Positions 21,400 through 50,689 of a stretch of 64,000 nucleotides of DNA are shown here, piece after piece. Made by a program: the position numbers and the translations under genes. Each line of letters starts with the position of its first letter. Position 1 is the first letter of the stretch. The stretch is from IMG/VR virus record IMGVR_UViG_3300026382_000001; one strand, 5' to 3'. The stretch comes from a virus (taxonomy: Duplodnaviria > Heunggongvirae > Uroviricota > Caudoviricetes). The notes beneath the pieces were generated by a model. That model had not been told where the DNA came from. It saw only the letters and a list, made by a program, of their open reading frames with translations, and ran no database searches.

Positions 21400-22437
21400 A
21401 TGAATAAAATAGCTTTCATTAAAGATCCACATCTTATGTTTGGGTTTTCTAATAATATTAGAAAACCTTTATCAGGTGGTTCTGGAAATAGTTGGGAAAG
21501 AAGTATCCGATATAAATTAGAATTTATAGCCAAAACAATGAAAGATAATGGTATAAATATTTTAATTATATCCGGAGACGTTTTTGATCGGGCAAAGCGA
21601 AGTGATTGGTCATTTAATAAATGGTTAAAACATAAAAATATATTATTGGATATTTTTGTACACGAAGGAATTGAAATTTATTCAGTACAAGGTAATCATG
21701 ATATGTTTGATGGTAAAGCAGAATTAGACGGAACTGTTTTTGGAGAAATGGTCGAAGAAGATATTATTAAACATTTGACTACATATCCATTAGAATTTCA
21801 AACAATAGTTGGTATTATTAAAATTCATGGAATGGATTATTCATTCACTAAAGATGAACAAAAAAGAAAATTTCACTCCATGAATGAGGATTCAAAAGAT
21901 TATATTAGCATATGCGTTTCGCATACTAACATTAGTCCAAATGATGAACATTTAGTCGATTTTACCTATCAAGAATTAACCGAACAATTTCCAAATATTG
22001 ATGTTCATTTATGTGGACACTATCATTTAGGTTATGAAAGTACCCAATTAAATGAAGTTACTTTTATTAATCCTTGGAATATGACTCGGGTATCCCGAGA
22101 GTATCAAGTTCGTATGGATAACCATACCCCAGAAGTTGTATTGATAGATCTGGATAGATATAGTTCAAATAATATTGATTGGATTGAACACGTGGAACTT
22201 CCACATTTGCCATTCCATAACGCATTTAACGAGGAGGTTATATCGGTACTAAAGGAAAATCAAAAGTTTAAATTTTTTGAGGATTCTTCTGGGGAAGTTA
22301 TTAGTCTGGATGGACTTATCGATGAGGATTTAGATGATAATCAATTACTTAGTGTAATTATTAATTCAGTTCTCGGAGATAAAGATCCTAAAGAAAAACA
22401 AGCTTTATTAAATAAAGCTTTAGAATATTTAATTTAA
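21400..22437 (+). CDS. Mre11/SbcD-like recombination nuclease (T4 gp47-like)
   Basis: The phosphoesterase motifs DPHL, ISGDVFDR, QGNHD, SHTN and GHYH appear in the canonical order. 345 aa. Confidence 0.65.
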   Translation: MNKIAFIKDPHLMFGFSNNIRKPLSGGSGNSWERSIRYKLEFIAKTMKDNGINILIISGDVFDRAKRSDWSFNKWLKHKNILLDIFVHEGIEIYSVQGNHDMFDGKAELDGTVFGEMVEEDIIKHLTTYPLEFQTIVGIIKIHGMDYSFTKDEQKRKFHSMNEDSKDYISICVSHTNISPNDEHLVDFTYQELTEQFPNIDVHLCGHYHLGYESTQLNEVTFINPWNMTRVSREYQVRMDNHTPEVVLIDLDRYSSNNIDWIEHVELPHLPFHNAFNEEVISVLKENQKFKFFEDSSGEVISLDGLIDEDLDDNQLLSVIINSVLGDKDPKEKQALLNKALEYLI

Positions 22438-27424: not shown

Positions 27425-28243
27425 ATGATGAGAGAAGTTATCAAACATAGAGGCGCTAAAGTAAAGTTAAGTACATCTGATATAGATGAAATAGTAGAAT
27501 TTCTTACGATTGGTGATGTGACATTTAAAGAATTGGCTAGTACTTATCAAGTACAGATACAATACATTAAAAATATCTTTAATGGTAAAGGTCGTTTTAG
27601 ATATCTTTTAGGAACAGAAAAATATTTTAAAATGCATGAGGCACAACGTAAAATAAAGGAAGAAAAATTGAAAAGAGCTCAACAAATGAATTATTCCAGT
27701 AGTAATCCTACGTCAAATAAAAACGGGAAAAAAACTTTACTTAGTATGTCTCAAGAAGAATTAGATATTCTTTATACAAGATTACATAACGAAAGAGCAA
27801 TTGATTTAATAACTGAATATGGTATTGGTCAATCTCAGTTAAGTAAATTTAAACACGATAAATTTAAATCTATTAAGGGTAATCTTTTAGTTGATGGTAT
27901 TGATGGTATTGATGGTATTGATAAAGAAGTTTCGGTAATGGAAATTACGGAAACTAATGAAGTTAAAGAGGAACTTCTAGATTTAGCTAGAAAAACAACA
28001 GCTGCTAAAAAAATTAGTATTCTTGAAGTACTTCGCAATCATTTGGATTGTGTTGGTAAATCAAGATTACATGATTTATTAATAAGCGAAGAGTATATTA
28101 AACATGCGGTACATAATCCATTTGTAAATAATATGCAAACTGGTTTATTAATTTATGAAGTACTTCATTTAATTACTAGTTATAGTACTTTTGAAATTGG
28201 TATGTTTCTCGAAGAGATTAAAGAGGCTAATTATGAAAGTTAA
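27425..28243 (+). CDS. hypothetical protein with an internal DGIDGIDGID repeat
   Basis: 272 aa. Contains (GATGGTATT)x3 at 27893-27919. Confidence 0.4.
   Translation: MMREVIKHRGAKVKLSTSDIDEIVEFLTIGDVTFKELASTYQVQIQYIKNIFNGKGRFRYLLGTEKYFKMHEAQRKIKEEKLKRAQQMNYSSSNPTSNKNGKKTLLSMSQEELDILYTRLHNERAIDLITEYGIGQSQLSKFKHDKFKSIKGNLLVDGIDGIDGIDKEVSVMEITETNEVKEELLDLARKTTAAKKISILEVLRNHLDCVGKSRLHDLLISEEYIKHAVHNPFVNNMQTGLLIYEVLHLITSYSTFEIGMFLEEIKEANYES
27893..27919 (+). repeat. (GATGGTATT)x3 microsatellite-like tandem repeat inside the CDS (encodes DGIDGIDGI)
   Basis: Read from the sequence. Confidence 0.8.
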
Positions 28244-29042
28244 TATTAATTATATATCTGATCTAAATTTAGATCAGATATCGTTTGATGGTAATATGGA
28301 GGAATATATTGAAAGTATTCTTCCAAATATCAAAGGAGATATTTTAATTATCGCTGGTAATCTAGGTTCGGATTTAAACAAAAATCTTTTATTTTTAAAA
28401 AAAATAAGTCCGTATTATCATAAAATATTTTATGTAACTGGACCAAAAGAAATGTATTTGAATGACGAACATTATTCATTTAATTCAAATTCCTTTGAAA
28501 AATTAAATACTTTAAAACGTATATTAAATAATTTTCCGGAATTTGAAAATATTGTGCTTTTAGATGGTTTTGATAAACAGCGAATAGTTTTAGAAGAATA
28601 TGATAATCTTAGTATTTCTGGACTAAGTATGTTTTGGGATTATTCTGGATTACCTTTAAATTTAACCCACCGGGAAATAAACGATCTTTATAAAGCTACC
28701 GTTAAAGATTATAAATTTATTAATTTTGGTACTGATCATCGTACTGAGAAATTAAATAAATTAAATCCATCTAAATTATTTAAAAATAATTTTAAAAGAC
28801 TTGATAAATTAGAACCGGTCGATATAATGGTTACATATTACTGTCCTCTTAATACGGAAGAATCTTTTCAATGTTTTGATGGAGAATACCATATAAAACG
28901 TTTACAGCCAAAAACGTGGATTTTTGGTGGAATAATGAAGTTTGAGGATACTTTTTATAATAATACCTTATTGACAAATGCTTTTAATCTTAAAAATAAA
29001 ATTAAAACTTTAACAATAAAAACCTCATCAAAGGATATTTAA
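28233..29042 (+). CDS. degenerate paralog of the calcineurin-like phosphoesterase at 32528 (catalytic motifs lost)
   Basis: Same N-terminal I.YISDL.LD architecture as the 32528 ORF, but GD has become GN (IIAGNLGSD) and GNHD has become GPKE. ATG at 28233 with RBS GAGG is preferred over 28191. Confidence 0.45.
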   Translation: MKVNINYISDLNLDQISFDGNMEEYIESILPNIKGDILIIAGNLGSDLNKNLLFLKKISPYYHKIFYVTGPKEMYLNDEHYSFNSNSFEKLNTLKRILNNFPEFENIVLLDGFDKQRIVLEEYDNLSISGLSMFWDYSGLPLNLTHREINDLYKATVKDYKFINFGTDHRTEKLNKLNPSKLFKNNFKRLDKLEPVDIMVTYYCPLNTEESFQCFDGEYHIKRLQPKTWIFGGIMKFEDTFYNNTLLTNAFNLKNKIKTLTIKTSSKDI

Positions 29043-29326
29043 TGAAATTGTTAACAAACCGAGGTGAATGGTTGATAGCGGTGATTATGAGTTTAATCAT
29101 AGTAGTCGCCTTTCAGAGTATTCAATTACAATATTTAAAAAAGTCGTATTTGAAAAATATCCAAATTTTGGCAGATAATCAAAAAACAATTATTAAAAAA
29201 GAAACCAAAATATTCGAATTGATTTCTAAAATTTTAACTTATCAAACCAAAATTATTTTAAAACATGAAAAAATTTTAGATTCGAAAGATAAAATAAAAA
29301 AGAAAAGGAGTAAGAATGAAAGATAA
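29042..29326 (+). CDS. N-terminally membrane-anchored small coiled-coil protein
   Basis: One TM segment (WLIAVIMSLIIVVAF) followed by a K/E-rich helix. Confidence 0.4.
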   Translation: MKLLTNRGEWLIAVIMSLIIVVAFQSIQLQYLKKSYLKNIQILADNQKTIIKKETKIFELISKILTYQTKIILKHEKILDSKDKIKKKRSKNER

Positions 29327-29984
29327 TTTAAATTCTTCTGGAGAATCACGTATGGAAATATTACGATTAAAGGAAGATATATTAAAATTAAAGAAAAAAA
29401 TTAATTTTTACAAATATGATCAATTAACTGGATTAAAAACTAGAAATGATTTTGTTTGGGATTTTAATGATTTGATTTTAAAAGATAAACCATTTATGGT
29501 ACATCTATGCGATATTAATAATTTAAAATCTATTAATACCAAATATGGATATGTTAATGGTGGGGATACTTTAATAAAAAAAATGGCCAAAAAATTAAAA
29601 ACGATTTTTGATCATAGTTTTATTTATCGTATTGGTGGTGATGAATTTGTGGTATTTGATTTTAATTTAAATGAATATAATGATGATAATAATGAATTAT
29701 CCGTTGTATCTAAAGTAATTGAACCGATTTCACACATGGATATTGGGACAGAATCCGAAATAGATATTAATAATATTCTTATGGAAATGGATAAAGATAT
29801 GTTAAAATTAAAAATTAATTTGGATCGCCGTGGAACCAGACAAATTATAAAAGTGCATCATGGTTTAGATATGTGTTTAAATATTGATGGGTATATTGAT
29901 GTAAACTTAAAATATAAAGCTGGTAAACTTAAATTAGAACATAATGGTGATGAATCAGTTATTTATTTAAAAGAAAAGGATTAG
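29316..29984 (+). CDS. GGDEF-domain protein (putative diguanylate/nucleotidyl cyclase) with an N-terminal coiled-coil
   Basis: ..LCDINNLKSINTKYGYVNGGD.. and an intact ..YRIGGDEFVVF.. signature. Confidence 0.55.
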   Translation: MKDNLNSSGESRMEILRLKEDILKLKKKINFYKYDQLTGLKTRNDFVWDFNDLILKDKPFMVHLCDINNLKSINTKYGYVNGGDTLIKKMAKKLKTIFDHSFIYRIGGDEFVVFDFNLNEYNDDNNELSVVSKVIEPISHMDIGTESEIDINNILMEMDKDMLKLKINLDRRGTRQIIKVHHGLDMCLNIDGYIDVNLKYKAGKLKLEHNGDESVIYLKEKD

Positions 29985-29986
29985 AA

Positions 29987-30274
29987 ATGACGTTTGGTAA
30001 AGTAGTAGAGTTAATGAAAATGGATAGTAGTATTAAAGTACAACGTAGTGGTTGGAATGGAAAAGGAATGTATCTTTTTTACGTTCGCCCTGAAACCATT
30101 ATAGTTACTCAAGGTCATCCTTTTAATCGAGTATTTATCGAAGGTACTGAAATTCAAATACAATCATATATTGCTATGAAAACTGCTCAGGATACTATTG
30201 TTCCTTGGTTAGCTTCGCAAACGGATATGTTAGCAGATGATTGGGAATTATTTGGAGGAGCGAAAAGTGAGTAA
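29987..30274 (+). CDS. DUF2829-like small protein (the family that contains the anti-Thoeris sponge Tad2)
   Basis: 95 aa with MTFGKVVELMK....RSGWNGKGMYLF........LADDWELF. The GWNGKG and C-terminal DWE pattern matches what I recall of DUF2829. Confidence 0.45.
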   Translation: MTFGKVVELMKMDSSIKVQRSGWNGKGMYLFYVRPETIIVTQGHPFNRVFIEGTEIQIQSYIAMKTAQDTIVPWLASQTDMLADDWELFGGAKSE

Positions 30275-30686
30275 TTTAAAATATCCGATTCTTAGAGAAC
30301 GTTGGATTAAACTTAGAAAAAATAAAGATAAATCCTCGGAAGATATTATTTTACAAAAGCTTCTTGGATTAATTATCGATAAAACTGCCAAGTTGGCTAA
30401 AGAAGATAAATCAGAGAATTTAACAAAGTATGTTGATAAAGCTATTAAAAGCGAATACAAACAACAGTTAGACTCGTTAAGTAAAGGGGTTAAATGTGAA
30501 ACGGAAATTAAACTTTTAGAAGATATGTTACCAAAAACATTATCCGAAGAAGAAACGGTTAATATTATTTTAGATATTTTAGCTAGAAATAATAAACCAA
30601 ATATGGGATTAGTGATGAAGGAATTAAGAACGATTCCAAATTTAGATATGAAACTAACGTCTAACTTAGTTAAAAAATTATTATAA
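30267..30686 (+). CDS. YqeY/GatB-C-terminal-domain-like protein
   Basis: ..MLPKTLSEEETVNIILDIL.....NMGLVMKEL......KLTSNLVKKLL resembles the YqeY consensus (YLPKQLSEEE..., ...LVKELL). A GTG start at 30267 with RBS GGAGGAG is proposed. Confidence 0.45.
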   Translation: MSNLKYPILRERWIKLRKNKDKSSEDIILQKLLGLIIDKTAKLAKEDKSENLTKYVDKAIKSEYKQQLDSLSKGVKCETEIKLLEDMLPKTLSEEETVNIILDILARNNKPNMGLVMKELRTIPNLDMKLTSNLVKKLL

Positions 30687-30696
30687 GGAAAGAATT

Positions 30697-31008
30697 ATGA
30701 AAAAAGTTATAAAGATATTTACAGGATTATTAATAATAGGTGCAAGTTTATTTGCGGATAGTTCGTCTGGTAAAAATAAATGGAATAATGGTTCAATAGA
30801 TATTGAAACAAGTTTAAATAATGTTTACATTTACGATAAAAAAAATTATTTATTAAAAAACCAAAACCAGTACGAAATGGAAGCAGGTTTACGAGATAGT
30901 ATATATAAAAAACCAAATTTATGTAAATTGGTTAATACTAAACCAGCTATTTTTGTATATATTTATTCAGATGGTGCATTAACAATTACAATAGATGGAT
31001 GTAAATAA
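30697..31008 (+). CDS. small secreted protein (signal peptide)
   Basis: MKKVIKIFTGLLIIGASLFADSS N-terminus. Confidence 0.4.
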   Translation: MKKVIKIFTGLLIIGASLFADSSSGKNKWNNGSIDIETSLNNVYIYDKKNYLLKNQNQYEMEAGLRDSIYKKPNLCKLVNTKPAIFVYIYSDGALTITIDGCK

Positions 31009-31322
31009 TGGAAATTACGATACAATGGTTTTGGTTAATTGGAGTGGTCGTTATGACAATCGAAGCTTTTTTAGCTTGGAAGTGGTTCAATACTGGCTTT
31101 TCAAAAAAATGGGGATATACTTTACTAGTAACTATTATACTAGTAATTATAACTGGAAGAATGGTTAAAATTGAGCAAATTACTAAACGTGATTTTAATA
31201 TTTTACAAACTCAAAATATAGAATCTCATAAAAAGTTACCACCTAAAGTAACGGACGATTCTTTTATCGAGAATGATAAAAATACCAAAAGTATTGATAT
31301 CAATTTTGTTAATGCTCATTAG
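31008..31322 (+). CDS. small membrane protein (2 TM)
   Basis: Two hydrophobic segments: WFWLIGVVVMTIEAFLAW and LLVTIILVIITG. Confidence 0.4.
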   Translation: MEITIQWFWLIGVVVMTIEAFLAWKWFNTGFSKKWGYTLLVTIILVIITGRMVKIEQITKRDFNILQTQNIESHKKLPPKVTDDSFIENDKNTKSIDINFVNAH

Positions 31323-31331
31323 GGATATTTA

Positions 31332-31559
31332 ATGAAGTATCTATACAAAACTTTTATAATTGGATTAATATTTATTGGATATGTATTTAACATATATTTT
31401 CTAACAGTTGATCCAAAAATAAGAGATTACCAATGGGTTAATAAAGTTGGGATAGTGATTATTCCACTTGGATCAGTTATGGGTTTAGTTTATGCACTTG
31501 ATAATATCAAATGTGTTTCATATTGTAAGAGTAAAAATATAAAAACAGAGGAAAAATAA
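31332..31559 (+). CDS. small membrane protein (2 TM)
   Basis: Two hydrophobic segments: FIIGLIFIGYVFNIYFL and IVIIPLGSVMGLVYAL. Confidence 0.4.
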   Translation: MKYLYKTFIIGLIFIGYVFNIYFLTVDPKIRDYQWVNKVGIVIIPLGSVMGLVYALDNIKCVSYCKSKNIKTEEK

Positions 31560-32444
31560 ATGAGAAAAGTTTTAAAAAAATTAATGTTCGTAGTGAGTTT
31601 AGGTTTAGCTATGATAGTAATGACTGGTTGTAATGAACAAGTACCAGCTGGTTATGGTGGAAAGATTCTAGGTAAAAATGGGTGGCAACCAGAGATTTAC
31701 CCACCTTCTAAAGTTTGGGTAGATACTACTTTTACTTTTACTCCAGAAAAATTATTTCTTTATCAAACAACTACACAAAAATTTGTACAACCAATCAAAA
31801 TTCTTTTAAAAGATAAGTTGACACTTAATGCCGAAATAGTATTCCGTGGTAGAATAACTACAAATAAAAAAATCATCAATGGTTTATTTAATGATATGCC
31901 AATGAATGACAATATCGTTCAAACCTCAGAAGTATATAATACTTATGGTAAAATGATTGTACTTAATACGGCTCGAGAAGTAATTTCTAAATATAATGTC
32001 GACGAAGTTAATAAAAATTATGCTCGTATTACTATTGAATTATATGAAGCTATTAAGCCCAAGTTAGAAGGTTTACCTATTCAAATTTCAGATGTGACAT
32101 TGGGAAATATTCAATATCCTAAAATAGTAACGGAAGCTATTGAAAAAGCTAAACAACGTAGAATGGCTATCGAACAGGAAAAAGCTCAAGTACAAATCGA
32201 ATTGGAAAAAGCTAAAGGTAGAGAACAGGTTGCTAAAGCGGAATATCGTATTAAAATGTTAGAAGCAAAACGAATACGCGATTATAATAAAATGATTGAG
32301 CAAGGGGTTACACCAAATCTTCTTAAACTTCGTAAGTTAGAAGTACAAGAAAAAATGGTGGAAGCTATTAAAGAAAATAAAAACGTGGTTTATATGCCTA
32401 TGGATATGATGAATGGTAGCACAAACATGAGAATTATTAAATAG
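31560..32444 (+). CDS. SPFH/band-7 (prohibitin/HflK-like) lipoprotein
   Basis: Lipobox MIVMTGC after the signal peptide. The C-terminal helical region (AIEKAKQRRMAIEQEKAQVQIELEKAKGREQVAKAEYRI) is typical of SPFH proteins. Confidence 0.5.
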   Translation: MRKVLKKLMFVVSLGLAMIVMTGCNEQVPAGYGGKILGKNGWQPEIYPPSKVWVDTTFTFTPEKLFLYQTTTQKFVQPIKILLKDKLTLNAEIVFRGRITTNKKIINGLFNDMPMNDNIVQTSEVYNTYGKMIVLNTAREVISKYNVDEVNKNYARITIELYEAIKPKLEGLPIQISDVTLGNIQYPKIVTEAIEKAKQRRMAIEQEKAQVQIELEKAKGREQVAKAEYRIKMLEAKRIRDYNKMIEQGVTPNLLKLRKLEVQEKMVEAIKENKNVVYMPMDMMNGSTNMRIIK

Positions 32445-32466
32445 CTGGTTGTCGTGAACTAGTTTA

Positions 32467-32500
32467 GAGATAACTATTAATAGTTATCTCTTTTTTATTT
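32467..32500 (+). terminator. perfect 24-bp palindrome GAGATAACTATTAATAGTTATCTC followed by TTTTTTATTT (AGTTATC/GATAACT family member acting as a terminator-like element)
   Basis: A hairpin plus U-tract lies 22 nt after the SPFH gene stop. Confidence 0.5.
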
Positions 32501-32527
32501 ATATATTAAATATAAAAAAGGATAAAT

Positions 32528-33406
32528 ATGAAAGAATTAAGAATAGATTATATAAGTGATTTGCATTTAGATTTTTGGATGAAAGAAGTTAATCCTCAAT
32601 CACCAAAGTTTCAAAAACAATTACAAGAATTTATAAATATGATTCAACCAAAACCAGGTAAAGTTTTAATTCTTGCTGGAGACCAAGGGCATTATTTCTC
32701 TCAGGATTCAGCATTACTTCTGGAACTTAAGAAATACTATGAAAATATTTTAATAGTTCCAGGTAATCATGATATGTATTTAATTAGTAACAAACAGGAA
32801 AAAAAATATAACTGGAATTCTAAAAATAGACTTTTAGAAATGAAAAGATTTTGTAATGAACATGATGGTTTATATTTTATGGATGGTGATGTAATATCTA
32901 TAGATGGTTTTAAAATTGGTGGTATTGGTATGTGGCATGATTGGTCTTATGGAAAAGAACTTGGTTATTCGGATACCGAAATGGAAGAGATTTGGAAACG
33001 GGTTATGAATGATGCTAATTTAATATTTCAAGATTCGAAAAAGAATTATAATATTTCTTTCGGTTATGGGGGAAAAGAAAAAATAGTTCATTTCAAACCT
33101 ATGGAATTATATAAAGAGTACCGAGAAAAATTAGATAAGATGGAACCATGCCATTTAATGTTTAGTCATTATGGACCAATTATTCCAGATAATATTGAGG
33201 AAGATTATAAAGAAGATGAAGTAACTTCATTTTATTATTTTGATGGAGCTTCGGATATTTTTAGATTAAAACCACAGTACTGGATACATGGTCATACACA
33301 TTCAGTATATGAAAGTAACCGTTCTGGTACTAAAGTTATTACCAACCCACTTGGATATCCAAGTGAAAATAGTTATGTAACTATTAAAAGTATTTATTTA
33401 AAATAA
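32528..33406 (+). CDS. calcineurin-like metallophosphoesterase
   Basis: DLHLD, LAGDQGH, PGNHDMY and HGHTH motifs. 292 aa. Confidence 0.6.
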   Translation: MKELRIDYISDLHLDFWMKEVNPQSPKFQKQLQEFINMIQPKPGKVLILAGDQGHYFSQDSALLLELKKYYENILIVPGNHDMYLISNKQEKKYNWNSKNRLLEMKRFCNEHDGLYFMDGDVISIDGFKIGGIGMWHDWSYGKELGYSDTEMEEIWKRVMNDANLIFQDSKKNYNISFGYGGKEKIVHFKPMELYKEYREKLDKMEPCHLMFSHYGPIIPDNIEEDYKEDEVTSFYYFDGASDIFRLKPQYWIHGHTHSVYESNRSGTKVITNPLGYPSENSYVTIKSIYLK

Positions 33407-33416
33407 AGGATTAAAA

Positions 33417-33614
33417 TTGAAAAAAGAATATTTTTATTTTTACTGCGTAGCAATATTTGAAGATGAAAAACAATTAATACTGGATGGTACGATTACCACC
33501 AATAGTCCTATAAAATCATCAGAAGATTTTAAAGAGTTATCTATCCGATTAAAAAATAATTATAAAACCAAAAATTTAGTAATTATGAATTTAAATTTAT
33601 TATTTGAGGATTAA
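33417..33614 (+). CDS. small hypothetical protein (TTG start)
   Basis: 65-aa ORF. Confidence 0.3.
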   Translation: MKKEYFYFYCVAIFEDEKQLILDGTITTNSPIKSSEDFKELSIRLKNNYKTKNLVIMNLNLLFED

Positions 33615-33618
33615 AAAA

Positions 33619-34167
33619 ATGAAGAATAAAATAAGAGAAGTTATTTACGAAGAGATAATTAAAGGACAACATCACGTTTTAACAAAATTGATTTTAAATA
33701 ATAAATTATCCCATTATGAATATTATGTGGGTATTCCTAAAGAACATCCATATTATAGAAAGAGTGATAATATGAAATCTAGATGGTTTAAAGAACCGGA
33801 TAAAAGTCAAGAATATTTATACAAAATAAGTAAATCAATCTCTTTTAATAATACACAAAATCTTAGAAAAGTAGTTAGGAGCTTGAAGGAACCTTTTAGA
33901 ATTAAAAATATAAATGATTTTAATTTTGATAGTGTTGTTGCTTTGGAACATGCTTGGTTATCTTTTAGTGGAAACTTCTACGAGTTTCTAAAAGAGGATT
34001 ATTGTTATTATGGTGGTGGCATGTATGTACCAAGTTTTGGAGATGATTCTTGTAAAAAATCTTCAGAAATAGCTTTAAAATTACTTGGGAATCATTTTTT
34101 AAAGGTACATGATATTAGCCCGAAATATTCCGATTTTAAAATAAACTTTGAAGGAAGGGAAGGATAG
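33619..34167 (+). CDS. hypothetical protein
   Basis: ATG at 33619 with RBS GAGGA. The track start at 33604 is also possible. Confidence 0.4.
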   Translation: MKNKIREVIYEEIIKGQHHVLTKLILNNKLSHYEYYVGIPKEHPYYRKSDNMKSRWFKEPDKSQEYLYKISKSISFNNTQNLRKVVRSLKEPFRIKNINDFNFDSVVALEHAWLSFSGNFYEFLKEDYCYYGGGMYVPSFGDDSCKKSSEIALKLLGNHFLKVHDISPKYSDFKINFEGREG

Positions 34168-34170
34168 TAA

Positions 34171-34578
34171 TTGAAATTATACGAATTAAAAATACATAAA
34201 CGTGATGATTATTTTTATAACCATGATACATTTAGTGTTAAACTTATTAACGTTATTGAAACTATTAAATGTGAATACACTTATAAAGAAAATAAAAAAA
34301 TAATTAGAAATAATACTTTTTTAAAATATAAAATAAAAAATGGTAACGATATAGAAACTATTGATGTTACGGATGGAACTTATTTTAAAACGTTAGACGA
34401 ACTTCTAGAATATTTTAAAAAAAAATATTTTAAAGTTCATTCGGATAAATATTATGATTATTATATGAATATTGATAATAAAGATTCTATCACGTGTGTA
34501 TCAAATTTATCGGCTAAGGGATTAGGATTAACCGAAGGTTATATAGATTTACAAAAAAAATTAAAGGAGAATAAATGA
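34171..34578 (+). CDS. hypothetical protein (TTG start)
   Basis: 135-aa ORF. Confidence 0.35.
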   Translation: MKLYELKIHKRDDYFYNHDTFSVKLINVIETIKCEYTYKENKKIIRNNTFLKYKIKNGNDIETIDVTDGTYFKTLDELLEYFKKKYFKVHSDKYYDYYMNIDNKDSITCVSNLSAKGLGLTEGYIDLQKKLKENK

Positions 34579-35543
34579 AAAAAGTAAAAAGTTTAAATGA
34601 ACTTATAAATGGAGAATATTATTGGATGCATAGTAAAATGATTTTTGATAATGGTTTTAGAAGTTCACAAATGTTAATACACCGTTATCGAAATCTTGAA
34701 GATAGTAGAGCTTATTTTGGGGACCGTATTTGGGCATTTGATGGTAATAACCAAGCTATGGAAAAATATGATATTTATGGACCAGTTCCAAAACCATTTA
34801 GAGGTGATTTAAGCAATCCAAATAATTCACAATCTTCGGAATTTGAAAAAGTATTTGGAAATAATGAAGAATTGGATTTAATGATTGCTCAAATTAGAGA
34901 TAGTTTTACAGAAGAAATTACAAAATATATTCCGGAGAGTAGCGCTTATAGTTCACCTGAATGTGTTTTATTTGCTCTTTATAAAAGTATTGAAGATAAG
35001 TTATCAACTTCAAAAGAGATAACTAAAGGTACTGATAGTTTACTATCAATAGTTGACGTCTCAAAAGAAAATAAATTTGAATTTTTTTGGGGAGGAATAT
35101 TTTCACAATGGGCTAAATATAATTTTACCGATGAATATGGAGTAATCTATAATTGTGCTGAACAGTACATGATGGCTCAAAAAGCAAAAGTTTTTCAAGA
35201 TAAGGAAACGTATGATAAAATTATGGCTAGTACTAATCCAAAAGAACAGAAAGCTCTTGGTAGAAAAATAAAAAATTTTAATGATGAAACTTGGGATAAA
35301 TATAAAATAGATGTTGTTCGAACTGGAACGTATTTAAAATTTTTGCAACATCCAGAATTAAAAGAATATCTTTTAAGTACTGGTAATAAGGTAATAGTAG
35401 AAGCTTCTCCGTATGATAAAGTTTGGGGAATTGGTCTCAGTGAAACAGATCCATTAAGATTAGATCCAAAAAATTGGAAAGGGCAAAATCTGCTTGGTTT
35501 TATTATAATGCAGGTAAGGGAACAATTAAAGGAGATTAAATGA
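34575..35543 (+). CDS. NADAR (YbiA/DUF1768)-domain protein with an N-terminal extension of about 150 aa
   Basis: The C-terminal half has FWGG.FSQW....F......YNCAEQYMMAQKA..F.D......IM.S..P.EQK.LGR.I.NF....W.........G....F.QHPEL...LL.TG...IVEASP.D..WGIGL. Confidence 0.55.
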   Translation: MKKVKSLNELINGEYYWMHSKMIFDNGFRSSQMLIHRYRNLEDSRAYFGDRIWAFDGNNQAMEKYDIYGPVPKPFRGDLSNPNNSQSSEFEKVFGNNEELDLMIAQIRDSFTEEITKYIPESSAYSSPECVLFALYKSIEDKLSTSKEITKGTDSLLSIVDVSKENKFEFFWGGIFSQWAKYNFTDEYGVIYNCAEQYMMAQKAKVFQDKETYDKIMASTNPKEQKALGRKIKNFNDETWDKYKIDVVRTGTYLKFLQHPELKEYLLSTGNKVIVEASPYDKVWGIGLSETDPLRLDPKNWKGQNLLGFIIMQVREQLKEIK

Positions 35544-36316
35544 GATTTATGCAATTAGGAAACGGTGGTGGATTAGATCCAACAGCTACGAATAGTAGTT
35601 TTTTAGTCCAGGTAAAAGATAATGAATATCTATTGTTTGATTGTGGTTTTAATATTATGCAAAGACTTATAGAAATTGAAAATAATCCTTCAAATGAATT
35701 TAATATTGGAATGATTAAATATGTATATGTTTCACATATACATGATGACCATGTCGGGAATTTAGAAACATTAATGTTTTGGAATTATTTTAAAAATAAT
35801 TCCAGTATTACTTTTCTTTATGCAAATGATGAAACGGAAGAATACTTTAAAAATAAATTATTTCCAAAATTATACAATGGTGGTAAAATTGATACAAATT
35901 CTGTTATTAACTCAACAATGATAAAATTATATCATGGTTCTACACAAGGTTATAATATAAAAAAAGATATCAAACATATACAAAGTACTAATGTTTCTAT
36001 ATTGGCATTATATAAAACATTTCATGGTGATTGTCAATCAAATGGTTTGGTTATTATTAATAATATAACTAATACTGCTTTGGTTATAAGTGGAGATACA
36101 AAGGCATCACTGCACTTAGAAGAAGAGATATTATATAAATTAAAAGATTGTAAATCTTCTATAATTTATCATGATTATAGCGATTGGGATTGTCCTAGTA
36201 AAAATGTTCATGCTTGCAAAACAGATTTTGAATGTGAGTATTCTGAAGATTTCCAAAATCAAATTATAAAATATCATGATAATGGCGATTTTATAACCGA
36301 TTGGCAAAATTGGTAA
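35540..36316 (+). CDS. metallo-beta-lactamase-fold hydrolase
   Basis: HxHxDH motif (VSHIHDDHVGN), plus a downstream HGD and a C-terminal H. Confidence 0.5.
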   Translation: MRFMQLGNGGGLDPTATNSSFLVQVKDNEYLLFDCGFNIMQRLIEIENNPSNEFNIGMIKYVYVSHIHDDHVGNLETLMFWNYFKNNSSITFLYANDETEEYFKNKLFPKLYNGGKIDTNSVINSTMIKLYHGSTQGYNIKKDIKHIQSTNVSILALYKTFHGDCQSNGLVIINNITNTALVISGDTKASLHLEEEILYKLKDCKSSIIYHDYSDWDCPSKNVHACKTDFECEYSEDFQNQIIKYHDNGDFITDWQNW

Positions 36317-36341
36317 AAGGATCTTCGGATCCTTTTTTTTA
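36317..36341 (+). terminator. rho-independent terminator AAAGGATC-TTCG-GATCCTTT plus T-run (C(UUCG)G tetraloop)
   Basis: A perfect 8-bp stem, UUCG loop and U9 tract lie immediately after the stop at 36316. Confidence 0.75.
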
Positions 36342-36367: not shown

Positions 36368-38425
36368 ATGTCAGAAATATTACCAAAATTAGATAATATA
36401 CCAGATTTTGAAAATAAATTAATTCAATTAAATAATCAATTTCATATCAGTTCAAAGATTAAAGAAAATTTAGAAAATGAAACTGGAACATTTTTAGAAA
36501 AAAATACTCTTATTGAAGATGAATTAAAATTATTAAATGATACTAAAATGCTTTTAGAGACTTTAAAAATTCATAAACTTAAAGAGAAAAAAGATTTTAT
36601 TCTTAATATAGTAAATACTGCTTTAGTGGATATCTTCCAAGATAATATTAAAATAGCGATCGAACCTCAAGAAGGTAAAGGTAAAGTTAATACAAGTGGA
36701 ACTCAAAAATTTGATATAATTTTTTATCAAAATGATATTGAATTAGCTAGAAATGAAGAATTGCTTATTTCTAATGGTGGTGGTATAATGCAAGTTGTAT
36801 CGATGCTTTTTAAATTATTAATAGGTTTTATTTATTCTAAAAATACTTTTTATATGTTTGATGAAAGTTTTAGTCAGTTAAGTGCAGATAACAGAATTCG
36901 TCTTAGTAAATTTTTACAAATGTTTTGTGAACAATATAACTTTACTATAGTTGTTGTTTCTCAAGTTCTTGATTTAGATGAGTACGCTGATATCATTTAT
37001 AGCGTGAATGCTAAATATAATAGTAATGGGGTTCGAGAATTAGTACTAGAGGATACTACTGTTAAAGAAGGTATTCTTGAAAGAAATATTGGTGAAGGAC
37101 AAGAAGGATTATGGGGATTAAAAATAAAAAATTTCCAAAGTATTAAAGAAATTGATTTAATTTTTAAAGGTTATACAATTATACGTGGTCCAAATAATTC
37201 TGGTAAAAGTGCTATACTTAGAGCAGTTTCATCTATTTTGTATAATTCATTTAATGTAAAAAAATATCCTCGTAAAGCTGGTGGTTTAGATACTAAAGGT
37301 AATCCAAGTAAGAAAGTTTTAAATACTGAAATAATTTTAGAAAAAACTTATTTTAAAGATCCAACAATAGAAGATGAAAAAAATGAAATAATTCAAAAAC
37401 GAGTAGGATTGCGTTATAAAAGTTCTAAAGTATCCTTTGTTATAGAAGGAGAAGAATATTACGGAAAGAATTTAGCCGCTGAAAAACTTATGGAAAAAAT
37501 TGAAGAACTTGGATTCAAGTACATTAATTTAAAAGAATTTTATAAGAACTTTAAAGGTAATTTAAAAGATCAAACAGAAAGAATTGCTAGTACTACTCAG
37601 TACGACGGATTATTTTTAGTAGGTTCAAAAGGTAATGAAACAGAAAAAATTTTTAACTTTTTATTCAATACTGAAAATATTACTAAAGCTATTTTAAAAG
37701 TAAAAGAAGATATGATGCTTTTATCAAAGAATCATGAAACTAATCAAGAACGTATTCTTGAAAATACTTCTAAAATAGAAGAAGTCAATAATGAAATTAG
37801 ATATTATTTAAAATTATATTATTTAACAATTATTGAAAATTTATCTTTATTCGATACAAAAGAATTAAAAAATTATATAACCAATCTTGATTTTGAAATC
37901 AATACTAGAAATCAGATTATAAATTTAATTTCTAAAAATCTTAATTTATTTAATGATTCTTTTTTACAAGTTAAGCAAACGGTTCAATATACAAATAATT
38001 TAAAAGATAATTTTAATGAATTAAGTACTAGAACGGATTACTTAAATAAGCAAATTTTGAAATTAGAAGAATTAAAGATATTAATAGATGAAACTTCTGG
38101 AAAATTAGAAATGGTTAATCAAGGACTTCTTTTAAAGAAAAATATAGAAACCTTAAAATTCAATTCAAATATGAAAGTAAGCGAGATCGAAGTAATTGAT
38201 TTTAGTTTACGAATTAGATATCAAATTGTAGAACGATTGGAAAAGATTTTTAAATTAAATAATTATCTTGATCAATATTCAAAGGATTATTCTAAAAAGA
38301 ATAATCTTGACTTATATTTGGAACCAGTGATTAATCAATTACAAGTTCTAAAATTAAAACACCAATCTTTATTTACGGAATGTAATAAATGTTCAGGTAA
38401 AGGTTTTATATTAAAAGGAAAATAA
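36368..38425 (+). CDS. Rad50/SbcC-like SMC-family ATPase with domain order apparently permuted (T4 gp46 analog)
   Basis: Residues ~130-200 carry a signature-like LISNGGG, a Walker B/D-loop FYMFDESFSQLSADN and IVVVSQ. A canonical Rad50 N-terminus (LKIKNFQSIKEIDLIF..GYTIIRGPNNSGKSAILRAV, Walker A) starts at about residue 250. The rest is coiled-coil. Confidence 0.45.
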   Translation: MSEILPKLDNIPDFENKLIQLNNQFHISSKIKENLENETGTFLEKNTLIEDELKLLNDTKMLLETLKIHKLKEKKDFILNIVNTALVDIFQDNIKIAIEPQEGKGKVNTSGTQKFDIIFYQNDIELARNEELLISNGGGIMQVVSMLFKLLIGFIYSKNTFYMFDESFSQLSADNRIRLSKFLQMFCEQYNFTIVVVSQVLDLDEYADIIYSVNAKYNSNGVRELVLEDTTVKEGILERNIGEGQEGLWGLKIKNFQSIKEIDLIFKGYTIIRGPNNSGKSAILRAVSSILYNSFNVKKYPRKAGGLDTKGNPSKKVLNTEIILEKTYFKDPTIEDEKNEIIQKRVGLRYKSSKVSFVIEGEEYYGKNLAAEKLMEKIEELGFKYINLKEFYKNFKGNLKDQTERIASTTQYDGLFLVGSKGNETEKIFNFLFNTENITKAILKVKEDMMLLSKNHETNQERILENTSKIEEVNNEIRYYLKLYYLTIIENLSLFDTKELKNYITNLDFEINTRNQIINLISKNLNLFNDSFLQVKQTVQYTNNLKDNFNELSTRTDYLNKQILKLEELKILIDETSGKLEMVNQGLLLKKNIETLKFNSNMKVSEIEVIDFSLRIRYQIVERLEKIFKLNNYLDQYSKDYSKKNNLDLYLEPVINQLQVLKLKHQSLFTECNKCSGKGFILKGK

Positions 38426-39178
38426 ATGGATTATTTAAATTATTTAAAAACTACTCCAATAGATAATCAACAAGTTATATCCAGTACACGTGGATTACCA
38501 AAATCAGTTTCTAAACAACCAGAAAATAAAATACCGAATCAAACACATTCCAAAGATTCTATAAATCAAATTAATAAAAGTATTTCTAGTATAGGTAATA
38601 ATATTATGGGTGTTCAATTGCCTAGTGATTTAGGGGGAGATATTTTAAAAAATTCCACCCTTAATGATATATTGGATTATTCTGATTATCAAGAATTACT
38701 AATGGATATAAAAAAATTTATTACTAAACAATATGGTGATATTTGGTATGCTAAAGAATTAGAGTCTTTAAATTTATATAGTTATTTATTAAGTGAAGTA
38801 ACTGGTATCATAAATAACATATTTCCTAGTAATAAAACTTTTGACATTTCTAACTACAGAGAGGATATTATTTTTGAAAAATTGGCTAATTTATATTTTG
38901 GAATATTTCTTATCTTTTTACATGAAAGTGATGAGATGAGTATTTACAGTCTTTTAAATAGTTATATTAAACTTAGCGAAGATCCAAATTTTCAAAGAGA
39001 TAAAGGTATTATTTTTAATAATGCTTGGGATACATTGGTTCTTCCAATTAGCATTAAACAACATCATTTAGTACTTATAAAATTACTTGACTTTTGGTTT
39101 GGGATAGGCGGGACATGGGAAATTCTTAAAAAAAGAATTAAAATTAAGTTGTTAAAGGAAAGTGAAACTTTAAAATAA
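38426..39178 (+). CDS. hypothetical protein
   Basis: 250-aa ORF. Confidence 0.4.
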   Translation: MDYLNYLKTTPIDNQQVISSTRGLPKSVSKQPENKIPNQTHSKDSINQINKSISSIGNNIMGVQLPSDLGGDILKNSTLNDILDYSDYQELLMDIKKFITKQYGDIWYAKELESLNLYSYLLSEVTGIINNIFPSNKTFDISNYREDIIFEKLANLYFGIFLIFLHESDEMSIYSLLNSYIKLSEDPNFQRDKGIIFNNAWDTLVLPISIKQHHLVLIKLLDFWFGIGGTWEILKKRIKIKLLKESETLK

Positions 39179-41302: not shown

Positions 41303-41857
41303 ATGAAACCAGAAACAAAACAAAAATTCTTAAATGAAAAAATAGGTTATGTTGATGTGTTATTCGATTCAGAGTCTAATAGATTAATGAATCAAATAAT
41401 TAAAGATCTTGGATTAAAGAAAGATTTTAATGATGATTTTCATTGTACTATTTCATATTCTAAAAAAGATTTTAATTTTATATTACCTGGTGAAAAGTTA
41501 GATAATATAAAAATTAAAGATAATAAAGTACATGTTGATATAAACGAAAATTGTACTATTAAAGGTTTTGGTAATTTTAAAACAAATGAAGGTTTAAATT
41601 TACATATTGAATTAGATTGTCCTTTTTGTAAATCTGAATTTAAAAGATGTGTTAAAGCCGGAGCAGTATATGATTATCCAGAATATATACCACATATTAC
41701 TCTAATGTATAATTGTTCTTTACCAGGAGAAGACAAAGGTATACCGAAAGAGTATTTTAAAAATACTCTTAATAAGTACATTGGGAAAAAAATAAAGATA
41801 ATTAAAGAACGTAAACAAAAACTTAATAAAAATTGGGTTAAAGAATCCAAAAAATAA
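41303..41857 (+). CDS. 2H-phosphoesterase superfamily protein (LigT/cyclic phosphodiesterase-like)
   Basis: Two H-x-T/S-x motifs about 85 aa apart: FHCTISY and PHITLMY. Confidence 0.45.
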   Translation: MKPETKQKFLNEKIGYVDVLFDSESNRLMNQIIKDLGLKKDFNDDFHCTISYSKKDFNFILPGEKLDNIKIKDNKVHVDINENCTIKGFGNFKTNEGLNLHIELDCPFCKSEFKRCVKAGAVYDYPEYIPHITLMYNCSLPGEDKGIPKEYFKNTLNKYIGKKIKIIKERKQKLNKNWVKESKK

Positions 41858-45295: not shown

Positions 45296-45808
45296 TTAAT
45301 TTTCAATTTTATTAACTAATGGGCCCTTTCTACGGTACTTTGTTCCTATGGATTGGATAAGACCAACCTCATAATCTAAAAGTTCTTTAGCGTCATTAAA
45401 GACCTGATGGATAACGATCCAGTTCAATTGATATTCTTTCCAATCATGTGGAACTCCTATATCATTGTTCTTTTTCGCTCTTTCCATATTTTTTTCTATT
45501 TCTTTAAATTTTTCAACTTTTAAAACATTATGTTCTTTATTTTTTAAGTAAGATTGTATATGTTGATTATGTCTATAACCAGCACCTCTAGAGGCTTTAC
45601 CAACGTAAATAGGTTCATATGCACTACAATATGGTTTACCATCTGGAGCCTTAATATCAAAAGCTTTATTCAATTTTTTAAAAGGATCTAAATAAATATA
45701 AATATAAAATTGATATCTGTTATAATTGAAATTATCTATTTTTGGATAAATTTTATAAAGTTTTAATAAGTTCATATTATTACAAGTGCTTTTGATATTT
45801 TGGTTCAT
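45296..45808 (-). CDS. hypothetical protein (possible small nuclease-like, low confidence)
   Basis: 170 aa. ..EPIYVGKASRGAGYRHNQH.. is weakly reminiscent of a GIY-YIG/HNH-like core. Confidence 0.3.
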   Translation of the reverse strand: MNQNIKSTCNNMNLLKLYKIYPKIDNFNYNRYQFYIYIYLDPFKKLNKAFDIKAPDGKPYCSAYEPIYVGKASRGAGYRHNQHIQSYLKNKEHNVLKVEKFKEIEKNMERAKKNNDIGVPHDWKEYQLNWIVIHQVFNDAKELLDYEVGLIQSIGTKYRRKGPLVNKIEN

Positions 45809-45809
45809 C

Positions 45810-46178
45810 CTATACTCCTAATTTTTCAATTGTTTTTTCAGCTACAGTATCTATAAAAGAAATATCTTGAATTAAAGAATTTTGAATTTCTTTTTCAATT
45901 ATTTTTTTATCTTCTGTCAATGAAGTTTTTAAAAGTTCTAATTCTAATTTTAATTTGCTATTTTCTTTATTTAAATTATCTATCAGTTCTTTTTCGTCTT
46001 TTATAAATTTTTTTAAATTATCTATTTCGTTTTGAATTTTTTTATCCAAAGTTTTTTGAAAATAATCAGAACTTTTTTCGTAGCTTTCAAAACGAGTATT
46101 TAATTCCTTTTTAAATGTTTTTATATTATTAGAAAAATAATTTTTTAATTCTTTAAATACTTCGCTATAATTTTCCAT
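45810..46178 (-). CDS. small coiled-coil protein
   Basis: 122 aa. K/E/L-rich. Confidence 0.35.
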   Translation of the reverse strand: MENYSEVFKELKNYFSNNIKTFKKELNTRFESYEKSSDYFQKTLDKKIQNEIDNLKKFIKDEKELIDNLNKENSKLKLELELLKTSLTEDKKIIEKEIQNSLIQDISFIDTVAEKTIEKLGV

Positions 46179-46188
46179 ATTTAAATCC

Positions 46189-46383
46189 TTACTCAGTTTT
46201 AGAAGCTTCTTGCTCCATCAATAATCTTAATTCTTCTTTAGTTTTTAGAAATTCTTTTTCAAGATCTATTCCACCAAAATCAATTACTTTGCCATCCGCT
46301 TCTACTACTTTAGTATCTGTATCGTACTTGATTACTTCCGCTTCCGGAAGTAATCTTTTAAATGTGTGCATTTTTATTCTCAT
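46189..46383 (-). CDS. small hypothetical protein
   Basis: 64-aa ORF. Confidence 0.3.
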   Translation of the reverse strand: MRIKMHTFKRLLPEAEVIKYDTDTKVVEADGKVIDFGGIDLEKEFLKTKEELRLLMEQEASKTE

Positions 46384-46392
46384 AATATACCC

Positions 46393-50679: not shown

Positions 50680-50689
50680 ATATTTTCCT

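Follow-up and report, generated by a model that had tools for sequence, protein, structure and literature searches.

A phage Rad50/SbcC-like ABC ATPase with circularly permuted head lobes

The 64,000-nucleotide stretch of viral DNA analysed here (the window) encodes, at 36368-38425, what is very probably a circularly permuted Rad50/SbcC-type ABC ATPase, the subunit of an Mre11-Rad50-like DNA-end-processing nuclease of the SbcCD or T4 gp46/gp47-like kind. The biochemical part of this assignment is inferred; there are no biochemical data on ATPase activity, zinc binding or interaction with the Mre11-like protein. The gene is a single continuous frame on the + strand with an ATG start and 685 codons for amino acids, exactly where the first-pass annotation had placed it. 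An AAAGGA ribosome-binding site lies close to the start, and a terminator-like site (hairpin plus T8) is also found just 5' of the frame. The protein is the window's only one with an ABC-type Walker A motif, and its chain runs from a coiled-coil helix and C-lobe through a linker to the N-lobe, a coiled coil and a C-terminal CxxC motif. The features, with the inferred nuclease partner, are as follows.

36368..38425, + strand: whole gene, circularly permuted Rad50/SbcC-like ABC ATPase, 685 aa (ORF list)
36395..36637, + strand: N-terminal long helix, aa 10-90
36647..37063, + strand: ABC C-lobe, aa 94-232 (profile matches and invariant residues)
36773-36784, + strand: signature-like NGGG in the C-lobe
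36848-36865, + strand: Walker B FYMFDE in the C-lobe
36866-36883, + strand: D-loop position SFSQLS in the C-lobe
ending at 36964, + strand: H-loop position VSQ in the C-lobe
37064..37108, + strand: 15-aa linker, aa 233-247 (alignment variability and models)
37109..37666, + strand: Rad50-type N-lobe, aa 248-433
37118-37141, + strand: first N-lobe strand LKIKNFQS
37187-37210, + strand: Walker A GPNNSGKS in the N-lobe
37562-37612, + strand: Q-loop region LKDQTERIASTTQYDGL in the N-lobe
37673..38359, + strand: coiled-coil arm, aa 436-664
38381..38404, + strand: CNKCSGKG (CxxCxGxG), aa 672-679, putative zinc-hook equivalent (conservation)
21400..22437, + strand: Mre11/SbcD-like metallophosphoesterase, 345 aa, inferred nuclease partner (Pfam Metallophos)

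PDB searches aligned aa 251-301 with residues 6-55 of T. maritima Rad50 and 6-60 of P. furiosus Rad50, and aa ~138-215 with the Rad50/SMC C-lobe from Walker B to the C-terminus. The latter segment also matched the C-terminal part of the ABCE1 nucleotide-binding domains, and in a profile search aa 150-214 matched the C-lobes of P. furiosus Rad50 (296-357) and of SMC heads. The independent ABCE1, Rad50 and several SMC C-lobe matches all fell on the same residues of the 685-aa protein. These results bear out a C-lobe-like segment proposed at residues ~130-200 and a Rad50 N-terminus proposed near residue 250. In absolute terms, the Rad50 matches were weak, with a best PDB E of about 1e-5, and so were the individual C-lobe matches in the PDB searches (domain scores of 3-16 bits); an NCBIfam search of the protein gave sub-threshold matches only. 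The AAA_23 (PF13476) score was 30.8 bits, above the cut-off of 27 bits. In native order, the Pfam SMC_N (PF02463) match was a fragment (aa 251-292, 31.7 bits). De-permutation (aa 245-685 followed by 1-244) gave one collinear match over both lobes, covering profile positions 5-199 of 220 with 39.8 bits; the gathering cut-off of 40 bits was not reached in either order, in the latter case narrowly. Together with the same order in more than 150 homologues, this supports the permuted domain order that had been suspected. A PHROG profile, phrog_15167 ('ATPase', 211 positions), spans aa 16-218 end to end and phrog_4747 spans aa 251-481; the two halves thus belong to separate PHROG families.

The first-pass annotation had given the coiled coil ~400 aa. 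The N-lobe extends to about aa 433, and the coil measures about 230 aa (436-664), a stretch in which the AF2 model contains only helices. It was correct that no ATPase lobe follows the coil, but the conserved CxxCxGxG at 672-679 had been overlooked. The possibility that a conventional C-lobe is encoded by the downstream ORF (38426-39178) failed, since this ORF had no ABC match in Pfam or PHROGs and an hhalign probability of 0.2%. A Pfam scan of the permuted ATPase found no hinge domain and no TOPRIM, nuclease or other effector domain.

Conservation was assessed in an alignment of 39 sequences (32-78% identity). The invariant residues are NFQS (255-258) and G274, N276, G279, K280 and S281 of Walker A in the N-lobe; G137-G139, F164-D165-E166 and S172 in the C-lobe; and C672, C675 and G679 at the C-terminus. 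Q402 and Q411 are both invariant as well. Q411 lies within a Q-x-D-x-x-F pattern that is also found in the split relatives described below. The Q-loop assignment is made from sequence only, because the model has low confidence there (pLDDT 30-60). In the C-lobe region, the signature, Walker B, D-loop and H-loop positions follow one another in the expected order and at the expected distances. NGGG stands in place of the LSGG signature, with GGG invariant; the D-loop position reads SQLS, without Asp; and the H-loop position is Gln in the protein's own subfamily and His in other family members. The linker at aa 233-247 is the most variable and gap-richest stretch of the head in this alignment. 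It falls between strands E223-232 and E248-256 in both AF2 models, connects the final strand of the C-lobe with the opening strand of the N-lobe, and is the join made by the permutation. The helix at aa 10-90 is the counterpart of that portion of the descending coiled-coil strand which lies next to the head and enters the C-lobe.

Hundreds of relatives are split into two proteins, one comprising the N-lobe and coil with a hook-like CPxCG end, the other the helix and C-lobe. These are the nearest detectable relatives outside the fused family, and they share with the permuted ATPase the same two modules with the same boundaries. The chain of the first module ends a few residues past its CxxC, in CPxCG/E-type motifs such as CPTCGQ, CPHCGG, CPLCEQ and CGKCGD; the second consists of a ~60-90-aa helix and a C-lobe with GGG, hDE and (V/L)S motifs. 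They form two polypeptides, whereas the permuted ATPase is one polypeptide in the reverse order. Split relatives are present in isolated Bacillus, Tunturiibacter and Microbacterium phages, alongside SbcD, UvsX and RuvC. The Bacillus phages keep the canonical gene order with small genes in between: prophage phBC6A51 has halves BC1852 and BC1855, and its genes run 'Exonuclease SbcC' (518 aa), 'Chromosome segregation ATPases' (211 aa) and 'Exonuclease SbcD', while vB_BboS-125 has halves gp32 and gp35 with the AP2-domain protein gp33 between them. In 0305phi8-36, gp8 combines an Mre11-like nuclease and the N-lobe half in one fusion protein, and gp5 is the C-lobe partner. The halves of Tunturi_5 and Magritte lie tens to 100 kb apart. 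The Tunturi_5 N-lobe half gp181 adjoins UvsX-like, RuvC-like, SSB and SbcD-like genes, about 100 kb from the C-lobe protein gp14; the halves in Microbacterium phage Magritte are genes 155 and 2. Tunturi_5 gp23 ('exonuclease recombination-associated') was rejected as the N-lobe half because it has no P-loop. GenBank labels the halves separately, as exonuclease and ATPase, and the free-standing C-lobe homologues within split SbcC operons are annotated as ATPase or chromosome segregation ATPase. On three short contigs with free-standing C-lobe genes, no adjoining N-lobe gene was found. No paper discussing split SbcC was found in the searched literature.

The inferred nuclease partner at 21400-22437 matches Pfam Metallophos (E 9e-11) and, weakly, the PHROG SbcD-like and TIGR00619 sbcd profiles. 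It contains DPH, GNHD, SHTN and GHYH motifs, with GDVFD seen in the alignment. It lies 13.9 kb from the ATPase gene, as the earlier figure of ~14 kb implied, and about 14 kb of accessory and anti-defence-like genes separate the two. Orthologues of the nuclease share 34-39% identity with it. In three related phage contigs they immediately precede the permuted ATPase gene, and in two others they lie 4.5-5.4 kb upstream of it. Because of the direct adjacency in those three contigs, the separation in the window is a derived state; large phages with SbcC and SbcD genes apart from each other have been described before (PMC5105663). Two other window genes were rejected in this connection: a second metallophosphoesterase (32528-33406) as the orthologue of the ATPase-adjacent nuclease (E 0.42), and a 703-aa upstream ORF, which has no Walker A motif, as a hidden canonical Rad50. 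PDB searches with these two proteins and the Mre11-like protein gave nothing useful.

An Apyc1-like metallo-beta-lactamase gene and a NADAR gene lie upstream of the ATPase gene, Tad2-like and GGDEF genes further upstream, and Acb1 three genes downstream. With such anti-defence-like genes on both sides, one may ask whether this Rad50-derived ABC ATPase no longer works with Mre11 and has another role instead. It might act in phage-host conflict, where it would serve as a sensor or decoy with kinship to ABC ATPases of the OLD, Gabija, PARIS, Lamassu or Septu type, or it might organise DNA in the manner of SMC/RecN. The atypical motifs are compatible with such a role, as are weak matches to MADS3 and to the OLD-family ATPase 6p74, the latter confined in PDB searches to aa 251-292 of the N-lobe (E 0.001-0.0025). 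We regard it as improbable, though it cannot be dismissed outright. The best sequence matches are Rad50 N-lobes, and the protein has no effector domain (TOPRIM, nuclease). Its orthologues in related phages sit directly downstream of the Mre11-like gene. Its split relatives occur in recombination clusters with SbcD, UvsX and RuvC, and 0305phi8-36 has one half joined to an Mre11-like nuclease. In the window itself, a terminator-like hairpin divides the ATPase gene from the Apyc1-like gene.

Phage contigs as long as 295 kb carry more than 150 homologues (32-78% identity) with the same fused order, which answers the question of whether related phages share it, and the fused-permuted family is widespread in large AT-rich phages. 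Among 263 retrieved relatives, 156 were fused-permuted by motif order, about 73 were N-lobe-only (69 of these ending in CxxC), and 29 were of short helix plus C-lobe size (20 with a regex Walker B match and 9 without). CxxC lies within the last 30 aa in 134 of the 156 fused homologues. No fused homologue was found by tblastn among isolated phages (50,697 GenBank phages); the 685-aa query gave one weak match there, to Tunturi_5 gp14, in the C-lobe only. Free-standing versions of both halves in many other phages, and their assignment to separate PHROG families, might suggest that the fused ORF is an artefact, with a C-lobe gene and an N-lobe gene merged by a sequencing, assembly or frameshift error or the two parts translated separately. 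This explanation is effectively refuted, and we give it almost no weight. The fused order is not an assembly artefact because more than 150 homologues share it, and 5 independent metagenomic contigs from different assemblies encode an identical 685-aa protein. The distance from the helix end to the NFQS motif is 153-168 aa, in one uninterrupted frame, in more than 150 homologues down to 32% identity, and the junction (aa 233-247) contains no stop, no conserved Met and no ribosome-binding-like signal.

Just as little credible is that the N-terminal ~230 aa are an unrelated domain fused to a truncated Rad50 N-half: the individual PDB matches to the C-lobe are weak, but the profile results effectively refute this reading, with Rad50, SMC and ABCE1 C-lobe matches converging on the same residues and collinearity once de-permuted. 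Also against it are the ordered motif positions with invariant GGG and FDE, full-length matches to free-standing helix plus C-lobe phage proteins, and the ATPase annotation of free-standing homologues in split SbcC operons. The best structural matches in BFVD were free-standing helix plus C-lobe phage proteins of 193-219 aa (TM-score on target 0.58-0.72). The BFVD search returned no full-length permuted structural match.

The best reading of the window protein is that a split Rad50 was re-fused in reverse order. The new termini lie beside the CxxC hook motif, and the likely origin is gene fission at the hook followed by this re-fusion. A phage SbcC gene would have been broken just after the hook, where vB_BboS-125 has its AP2-domain gene, possibly starting with insertion of a mobile element; the halves would have become independent genes and then been re-fused, with the C-lobe gene first and the N-lobe gene second. 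A neighbour-joining tree built from the N-lobes nests the main fused clade within the split forms, with three further fused lineages at other positions. This tree is rough and has no support values; it suggests that re-fusion may have occurred more than once.

In the proposed mechanism, the C-lobe and N-lobe would pack into a normal ABC head, the packing itself being inferred. The N-terminal helix would pair antiparallel with the first ~90 residues of the helix leaving the N-lobe, and re-create the head-proximal coiled coil, the usual place of Mre11 binding. Two heads would dimerise around two ATP, each pairing its Walker A with the NGGG signature of its partner. The head dimer would close on DNA and control the Mre11-like nuclease (21400-22437), and the outcome would be resection of ends or opening of hairpins for recombination-dependent replication. 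The single C-terminal CxxCxGxG knuckle could supply half of a tetrahedral zinc site, zinc binding being inferred, and one zinc would then link two chains in the way known from the Rad50 hook.

In canonical Rad50 the zinc hook, with its CxxC, forms the apex midway along the coiled coil (PMC7752040). In the permuted ATPase, the CxxCxGxG lies 6 residues before the chain end, not at a mid-coil apex. With only ~80 aa in its descending helix against ~230 aa in the ascending arm, a simple canonical Rad50 arm is ruled out. AF2 gave a full-length monomer model with pLDDT 77 and a head-only model with pLDDT 79 and pTM 0.69. The monomer model predicts a fold-back at aa 596-599 that places the CxxC halfway up the arm, beside the N-terminus; if real, such an intramolecular fold-back would be unprecedented. 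With a chain that terminates at the hook and a returning helix of only ~80 aa, the distal arm may not be an intramolecular antiparallel coil. It is conceivable, though we hold it only tentatively and would not bet on it, that the distal arm is a parallel two-helix coiled coil between protomers, its tip closed by a shared zinc, in a minimal 'rod-only' Rad50. Among homologues, the proximal ~90 aa of the arm are constant in length and the distal part (aa ~525-645) is length-variable; these properties fit parallel and fold-back arms alike and do not discriminate between them. If the parallel arm is true, Mre11-Rad50 function requires neither an unbroken chain through the hook nor a returning helix of full length, and the split, fused-canonical and fused-permuted forms are a natural series for tests of hook-head signalling.

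The order N-lobe, coiled coil, hinge or hook, coiled coil, C-lobe is held as defining for Rad50, SbcC and SMC-like ATPases. The permuted ATPase resembles Rad50, SbcC and T4 gp46 in its SMC-like ABC head of a Walker A lobe and a signature/Walker B lobe, in the Rad50-type first strand (NFxS) followed by the P-loop, in the long coiled coil leaving the head and the CxxC motif, and, by gene linkage only, in its association with an Mre11-type metallophosphoesterase. It differs in placing the C-lobe before the N-lobe and in its NGGG, its Asp-less D-loop and the Gln at the H-loop. SMC, RecN, RecF, Lamassu LmuB and retron Eco7 PtuA also keep the canonical order; compared with other SMC-like ABC ATPases, the permuted ATPase has no hinge domain and no effector partner domain, and its sequence profiles favour Rad50 N-lobes. 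Canonical SMC proteins of the condensin, cohesin and MukB kind have a globular hinge for dimerisation midway along the coil. OLD, Gabija GajA and PARIS AriA have a TOPRIM/effector nuclease and no long arm, whereas the permuted ATPase has a 230-aa coiled coil and no TOPRIM. YjeQ/RsgA/YlqF GTPases are circularly permuted P-loop NTPases that function despite the permuted motif order. They belong to another superfamily, with the permutation inside a single compact domain, whereas the permuted ATPase swaps two lobes that are separated by a coiled-coil arm. A viral rearrangement of the Mre11/Rad50 gene pair is also seen in the Mre11-Rad50 fusion proteins of Mimivirus (R555) and relatives (PMC3175470). 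Those are end-to-end nuclease-ATPase fusions that keep the canonical Rad50 order, in contrast to the window protein, which is permuted and has no nuclease domain. No description of a permuted or split Rad50/SbcC was found in the searched full-text literature, where 'permuted' matched permuted genomes or methylases only; subscription journals were outside the scope, and a prior description is possible.

A chain broken at the hook in a large natural family implies that the polypeptide need not run through the hook, and that such a protein can do without most of the returning helix. This touches the open question of the mechanical role of the Rad50 coiled coil and hook in ATP-controlled nuclease gating, and the family documents circular permutation by gene fission and re-fusion. 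Pipeline labels such as 'EcfA2 transporter ATPase', 'ATPase' and 'hypothetical' make such phages seem to lack Rad50. Compact permuted and split proteins are convenient for structural and single-molecule work. The fused proteins have 600-750 aa, and the split ones 200 + 400 aa as two chains.

The ORF at 36368-38425 (plus strand) is real, with an ATG start, and encodes a 685-aa Rad50/SbcC-like ATPase whose C-lobe precedes its N-lobe, as the first-pass annotation had proposed in suggesting an SMC-type ATPase permuted head to tail. In a search of PDB sequences, residues 251-301 aligned with residues 6-55 of T. maritima Rad50, residues 138-205 aligned weakly with residues 282-349 of the same construct, and residues 104-224 aligned with the C-terminal part of ABCE1 nucleotide-binding domains. 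A profile built from 39 homologues gave a sharper comparison with the PDB: positions 231-284 matched P. furiosus Rad50 residues 6-60, and positions 151-213 matched Rad50 296-357 as well as the C-lobes of several SMC heads. PHROGs assigns the two parts to different families: phrog_15167 ('ATPase', 211 positions) is covered end to end by residues 16-218, and phrog_4747 spans residues 251-481. When residues 245-685 were re-joined in silico to residues 1-244, the Pfam SMC_N match, a 42-residue fragment in the native order (31.7 bits), became one collinear alignment over profile positions 5-199 of 220 (39.8 bits). The downstream ORF at 38426-39178 was tested and is not a C-lobe. These results remove both grounds for refutation that the first-pass annotation had named, namely an N-terminal segment unrelated to the C-lobe and a conventional C-lobe encoded downstream.

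The order is shared by relatives: judged by motif order, Walker B precedes Walker A in 156 of the 263 retrieved, and 134 of these 156 end in CxxC. A word-indexed protein search yielded 173 homologues. They come from contigs as long as 295 kb, and the majority measure 600-750 aa with near-complete coverage. Aligning 39 of these (32-78% identity) showed no variation at NFQS (255-258), at G274, N276, G279, K280 and S281 of Walker A, at Q402 and Q411, at G137-G139 in the signature position, at F164-D165-E166 (Walker B) and S172, or at the C-terminal C672, C675 and G679. At the H-loop position (199), the subfamily of this ATPase has Gln and other subfamilies have His. It is very unlikely that the fused ORF arose by an error in sequencing or assembly, or that its halves are translated separately, because the order is conserved, five independent contigs carry the identical protein, and the junction (residues 233-247), where the head varies most, has no conserved Met in the alignment.

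A full HMM scan over 1.84 billion representative proteins gave 8137 matches at E<=1e-3, of which 923 reached E<=1e-10; among them were about 55 fused clusters and two further protein classes. One class (190-230 aa) consists of the helix and C-lobe and matches profile positions ~8-214. The other (345-500 aa) is the N-lobe class, matching positions ~229-637, with the '(I/V)KNFQS' strand at its very start and its end a few residues past CxxC (CPTCGQ, CDKCGQ, CPHCGG, CGECKQ). CPxCG/E is the form of canonical Rad50 hooks. Family members are labelled 'ATPase', 'exonuclease', 'chromosome segregation protein' or 'EcfA2' in GenBank and JGI. Isolated phages, and one uncultured phage, carry the two halves as separate genes too, arranged as follows.

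Bacillus prophage phBC6A51: 'Exonuclease SbcC' (518 aa, ending ...CPLCESPMSFDHSH), two small genes, 'Chromosome segregation ATPases' (211 aa), one small gene, 'Exonuclease SbcD'
vB_BboS-125: split halves gp32 and gp35, with gp33 (AP2-domain protein) and gp34 between them
0305phi8-36 (L012 2472-6508): gp8, an Mre11-like phosphoesterase fused to the N-lobe, coil and hook half; then gp7, gp6 and the C-lobe protein gp5
Tunturi_5: N-lobe half gp181 among SSB, RuvC-like, UvsX-like and SbcD-like genes; C-lobe half gp14 ~100 kb off
Microbacterium phage Magritte: both halves, at separate sites
Uncultured 485-kb phage: both halves, at separate sites

A conserved helical protein of 77-92 aa (BC1854, vB_BboS-125 gp34, 0305phi8-36 gp7) is encoded between the Rad50 halves in all three Bacillus phages (for example at 5346-5579 in L011 and 5972-6208 in L009) and could serve as an adaptor or additional arm subunit. 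Full-text literature searches turned up no account of a permuted or split Rad50/SbcC, but they left out most subscription journals, and the negative result is only an absence of evidence.

In a rough neighbor-joining tree of N-lobes, made without support values, the main fused family was a single clade nested among split forms, and three further fused lineages (P0173/P0189, P0174 and P0252) lay elsewhere. The simplest reading is fission beside the hook, with the C-lobe gene later fused ahead of the N-lobe gene, perhaps repeatedly. AP2 domains occur in homing endonucleases, and the AP2-domain gene between the halves in vB_BboS-125 suggests that insertion of a mobile element may have begun the split. 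The opposite direction, a permuted ancestor undergoing fission, is not excluded. An N-lobe-only metagenomic relative (P0168, 446 aa) grouped with the fused clade and has a hydrophobic, transmembrane-like C-terminal segment (…YYGFGIAGVIIIALVFALIFLK) in place of the CxxC motif.

The full-length AF2 model (pLDDT 77) consists of a long helix (residues 11-90), a beta-rich C-lobe (94-232), the N-lobe (248-433), helices 436-490, 498-595 and 600-664, and a small beta-hairpin bearing CxxC. For a head-only model (residues 1-478; pLDDT 79, pTM 0.69), the top BFVD structural matches were free-standing phage proteins of 193-219 aa, and no full-length permuted protein was among the best matches. The N-terminal helix is 75-93 aa long across all family members, and the region from N-lobe to CxxC ranges from 201 to 321 aa. 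All indels in that region fall within residues ~525-645 of the window protein; none occurs in residues 434-524, a stretch as long as the N-terminal helix (~90 aa), or in 645-671. In the AF2 monomer the arm turns back on itself at 596-599. The ascending stretch 436-595 (160 aa) is then about as long as the N-terminal helix (80 aa) and the descending 600-664 (65 aa) together, and CxxC is left mid-arm next to the N-terminus. A model of a monomer would in any case bend a long unpaired helix back on itself. The length and indel data are also compatible with a parallel coiled coil between protomers whose two CxxC motifs come together at its tip, and the arm geometry is unresolved. Under either geometry, one CxxC(xGxG) per chain amounts to half a tetrahedral zinc site, from which we infer that zinc would bridge a pair of chains, as it does in the Rad50 hook. 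Unlike Rad50 family members, the window ATPase does not meet the family's criteria of chain order and hook position.

The genes around the ATPase include the inferred Mre11-like partner and the accessory genes (QueC-like to Apyc1-like, with a second phosphoesterase) that lie between the two.

19282-21393: 703-aa ORF with a very basic N-terminus
21400-22437, plus strand: Mre11-like metallophosphoesterase, 345 aa
23420-24163: QueC-like protein
24268-26922: full-length ClpB/Hsp104-type double-AAA+ ATPase, 884 aa
28191-29042 and 32528-33406: two paralogous metallophosphoesterases, ~30% identical to each other
29316-29984: GGDEF
29987-30274: Tad2-like
31560-32444: Band_7
34575-35543: NADAR
35540-36316: Apyc1-like metallo-beta-lactamase
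41303-41857: Acb1-like gene, downstream of the ATPase

The Mre11-like protein carries the metallophosphoesterase motifs DPH, GDVFD, GNHD, SHTN and GHYH; its SbcD-family matches were weak, and its orthologues are 34-39% identical. The orthologue lies 300-500 bp upstream of the permuted ATPase in three related phage contigs (L005, L015, L016), 4.5-5.4 kb upstream in two (L019, L004), and more than 10 kb away, as in the window, in the closest relatives (L013, L014). In the window lineage, ~14 kb of accessory genes make up the separation noted in the first-pass annotation. A homologue of the 703-aa ORF precedes the Mre11-like gene in L005, L015 and L016, so the ancestral order was likely 703-aa gene, Mre11-like gene, ATPase. 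This ORF, directly upstream of the Mre11-like gene also in L018, had no Pfam, PHROG or PDB matches and may belong to the same module. The stretch 27425-36316 is rich in accessory and anti-defence-like genes and looks like an insertion that parted an ancestral Mre11-Rad50 gene pair. SbcC and SbcD genes were already known to lie apart in phiKZ-like phages (PMC5105663).

What is observed here is which domains the protein has and in what order, how its motifs are conserved, how widely the family is spread and how the genes are linked. Beyond this, the protein most probably works like Rad50, its action as an ATPase being inferred. The two lobes would form a normal composite ABC site, and ATP would drive head dimerisation and the clamping of DNA, with the arms paired through zinc. 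The ATPase would regulate the Mre11-like nuclease in end resection or hairpin opening for recombination-dependent replication, on the models of T4 gp46/gp47 and E. coli SbcCD. Judging from the sequence, the unusual motifs, namely NGGG, a D-loop lacking Asp and Gln at the H-loop position, may alter the kinetics. The main rival reading, that the ATPase descends from Rad50 but acts in conflict or in some other role, draws on the anti-defence-like neighbours in the window, but loses weight through the synteny seen with Mre11-like genes in other phages and through the recombination clusters in which split relatives occur.

The window (G+C 24-31%) is clearly phage in gene content, with topoisomerase II subunits, the ClpB-like ATPase, QueC, homing endonucleases, NADAR, Apyc1-like, Acb1 and Tad2-like genes, and encodes no ABC-type P-loop protein besides the ATPase. 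Upstream of the ATPase start are an AAAGGA ribosome-binding site and, separating it from the Apyc1-like gene, a perfect hairpin with a run of eight T's behind it (36317-36340; AAGGATCTTCGGATCCTTTTTTTT). The hairpin looks like an intrinsic terminator, so that the ATPase may open its own transcription unit. Genes are co-oriented on the plus strand as far as ~45 kb, where both GC skew and strand flip (45296-63572, minus strand). Three large ORFs beyond this point, with absent or weak PHROG family matches, may encode structural or virion-associated proteins, and mobile endonuclease genes appear to interrupt or separate essential replication genes at 8216-11540 and 13516-18562.

46393-50679, minus strand: large ORF, 1428 aa
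51071-58372, minus strand: large ORF, 2433 aa
58413-60872, minus strand: large ORF, 819 aa
8216-9340: homing endonuclease, on one flank of the DNA polymerase fragment
9316-10650: DNA polymerase fragment
10650-11540: HNH endonuclease, on its other flank
16272-17177: HNH endonuclease, between two topoisomerase II subunit genes
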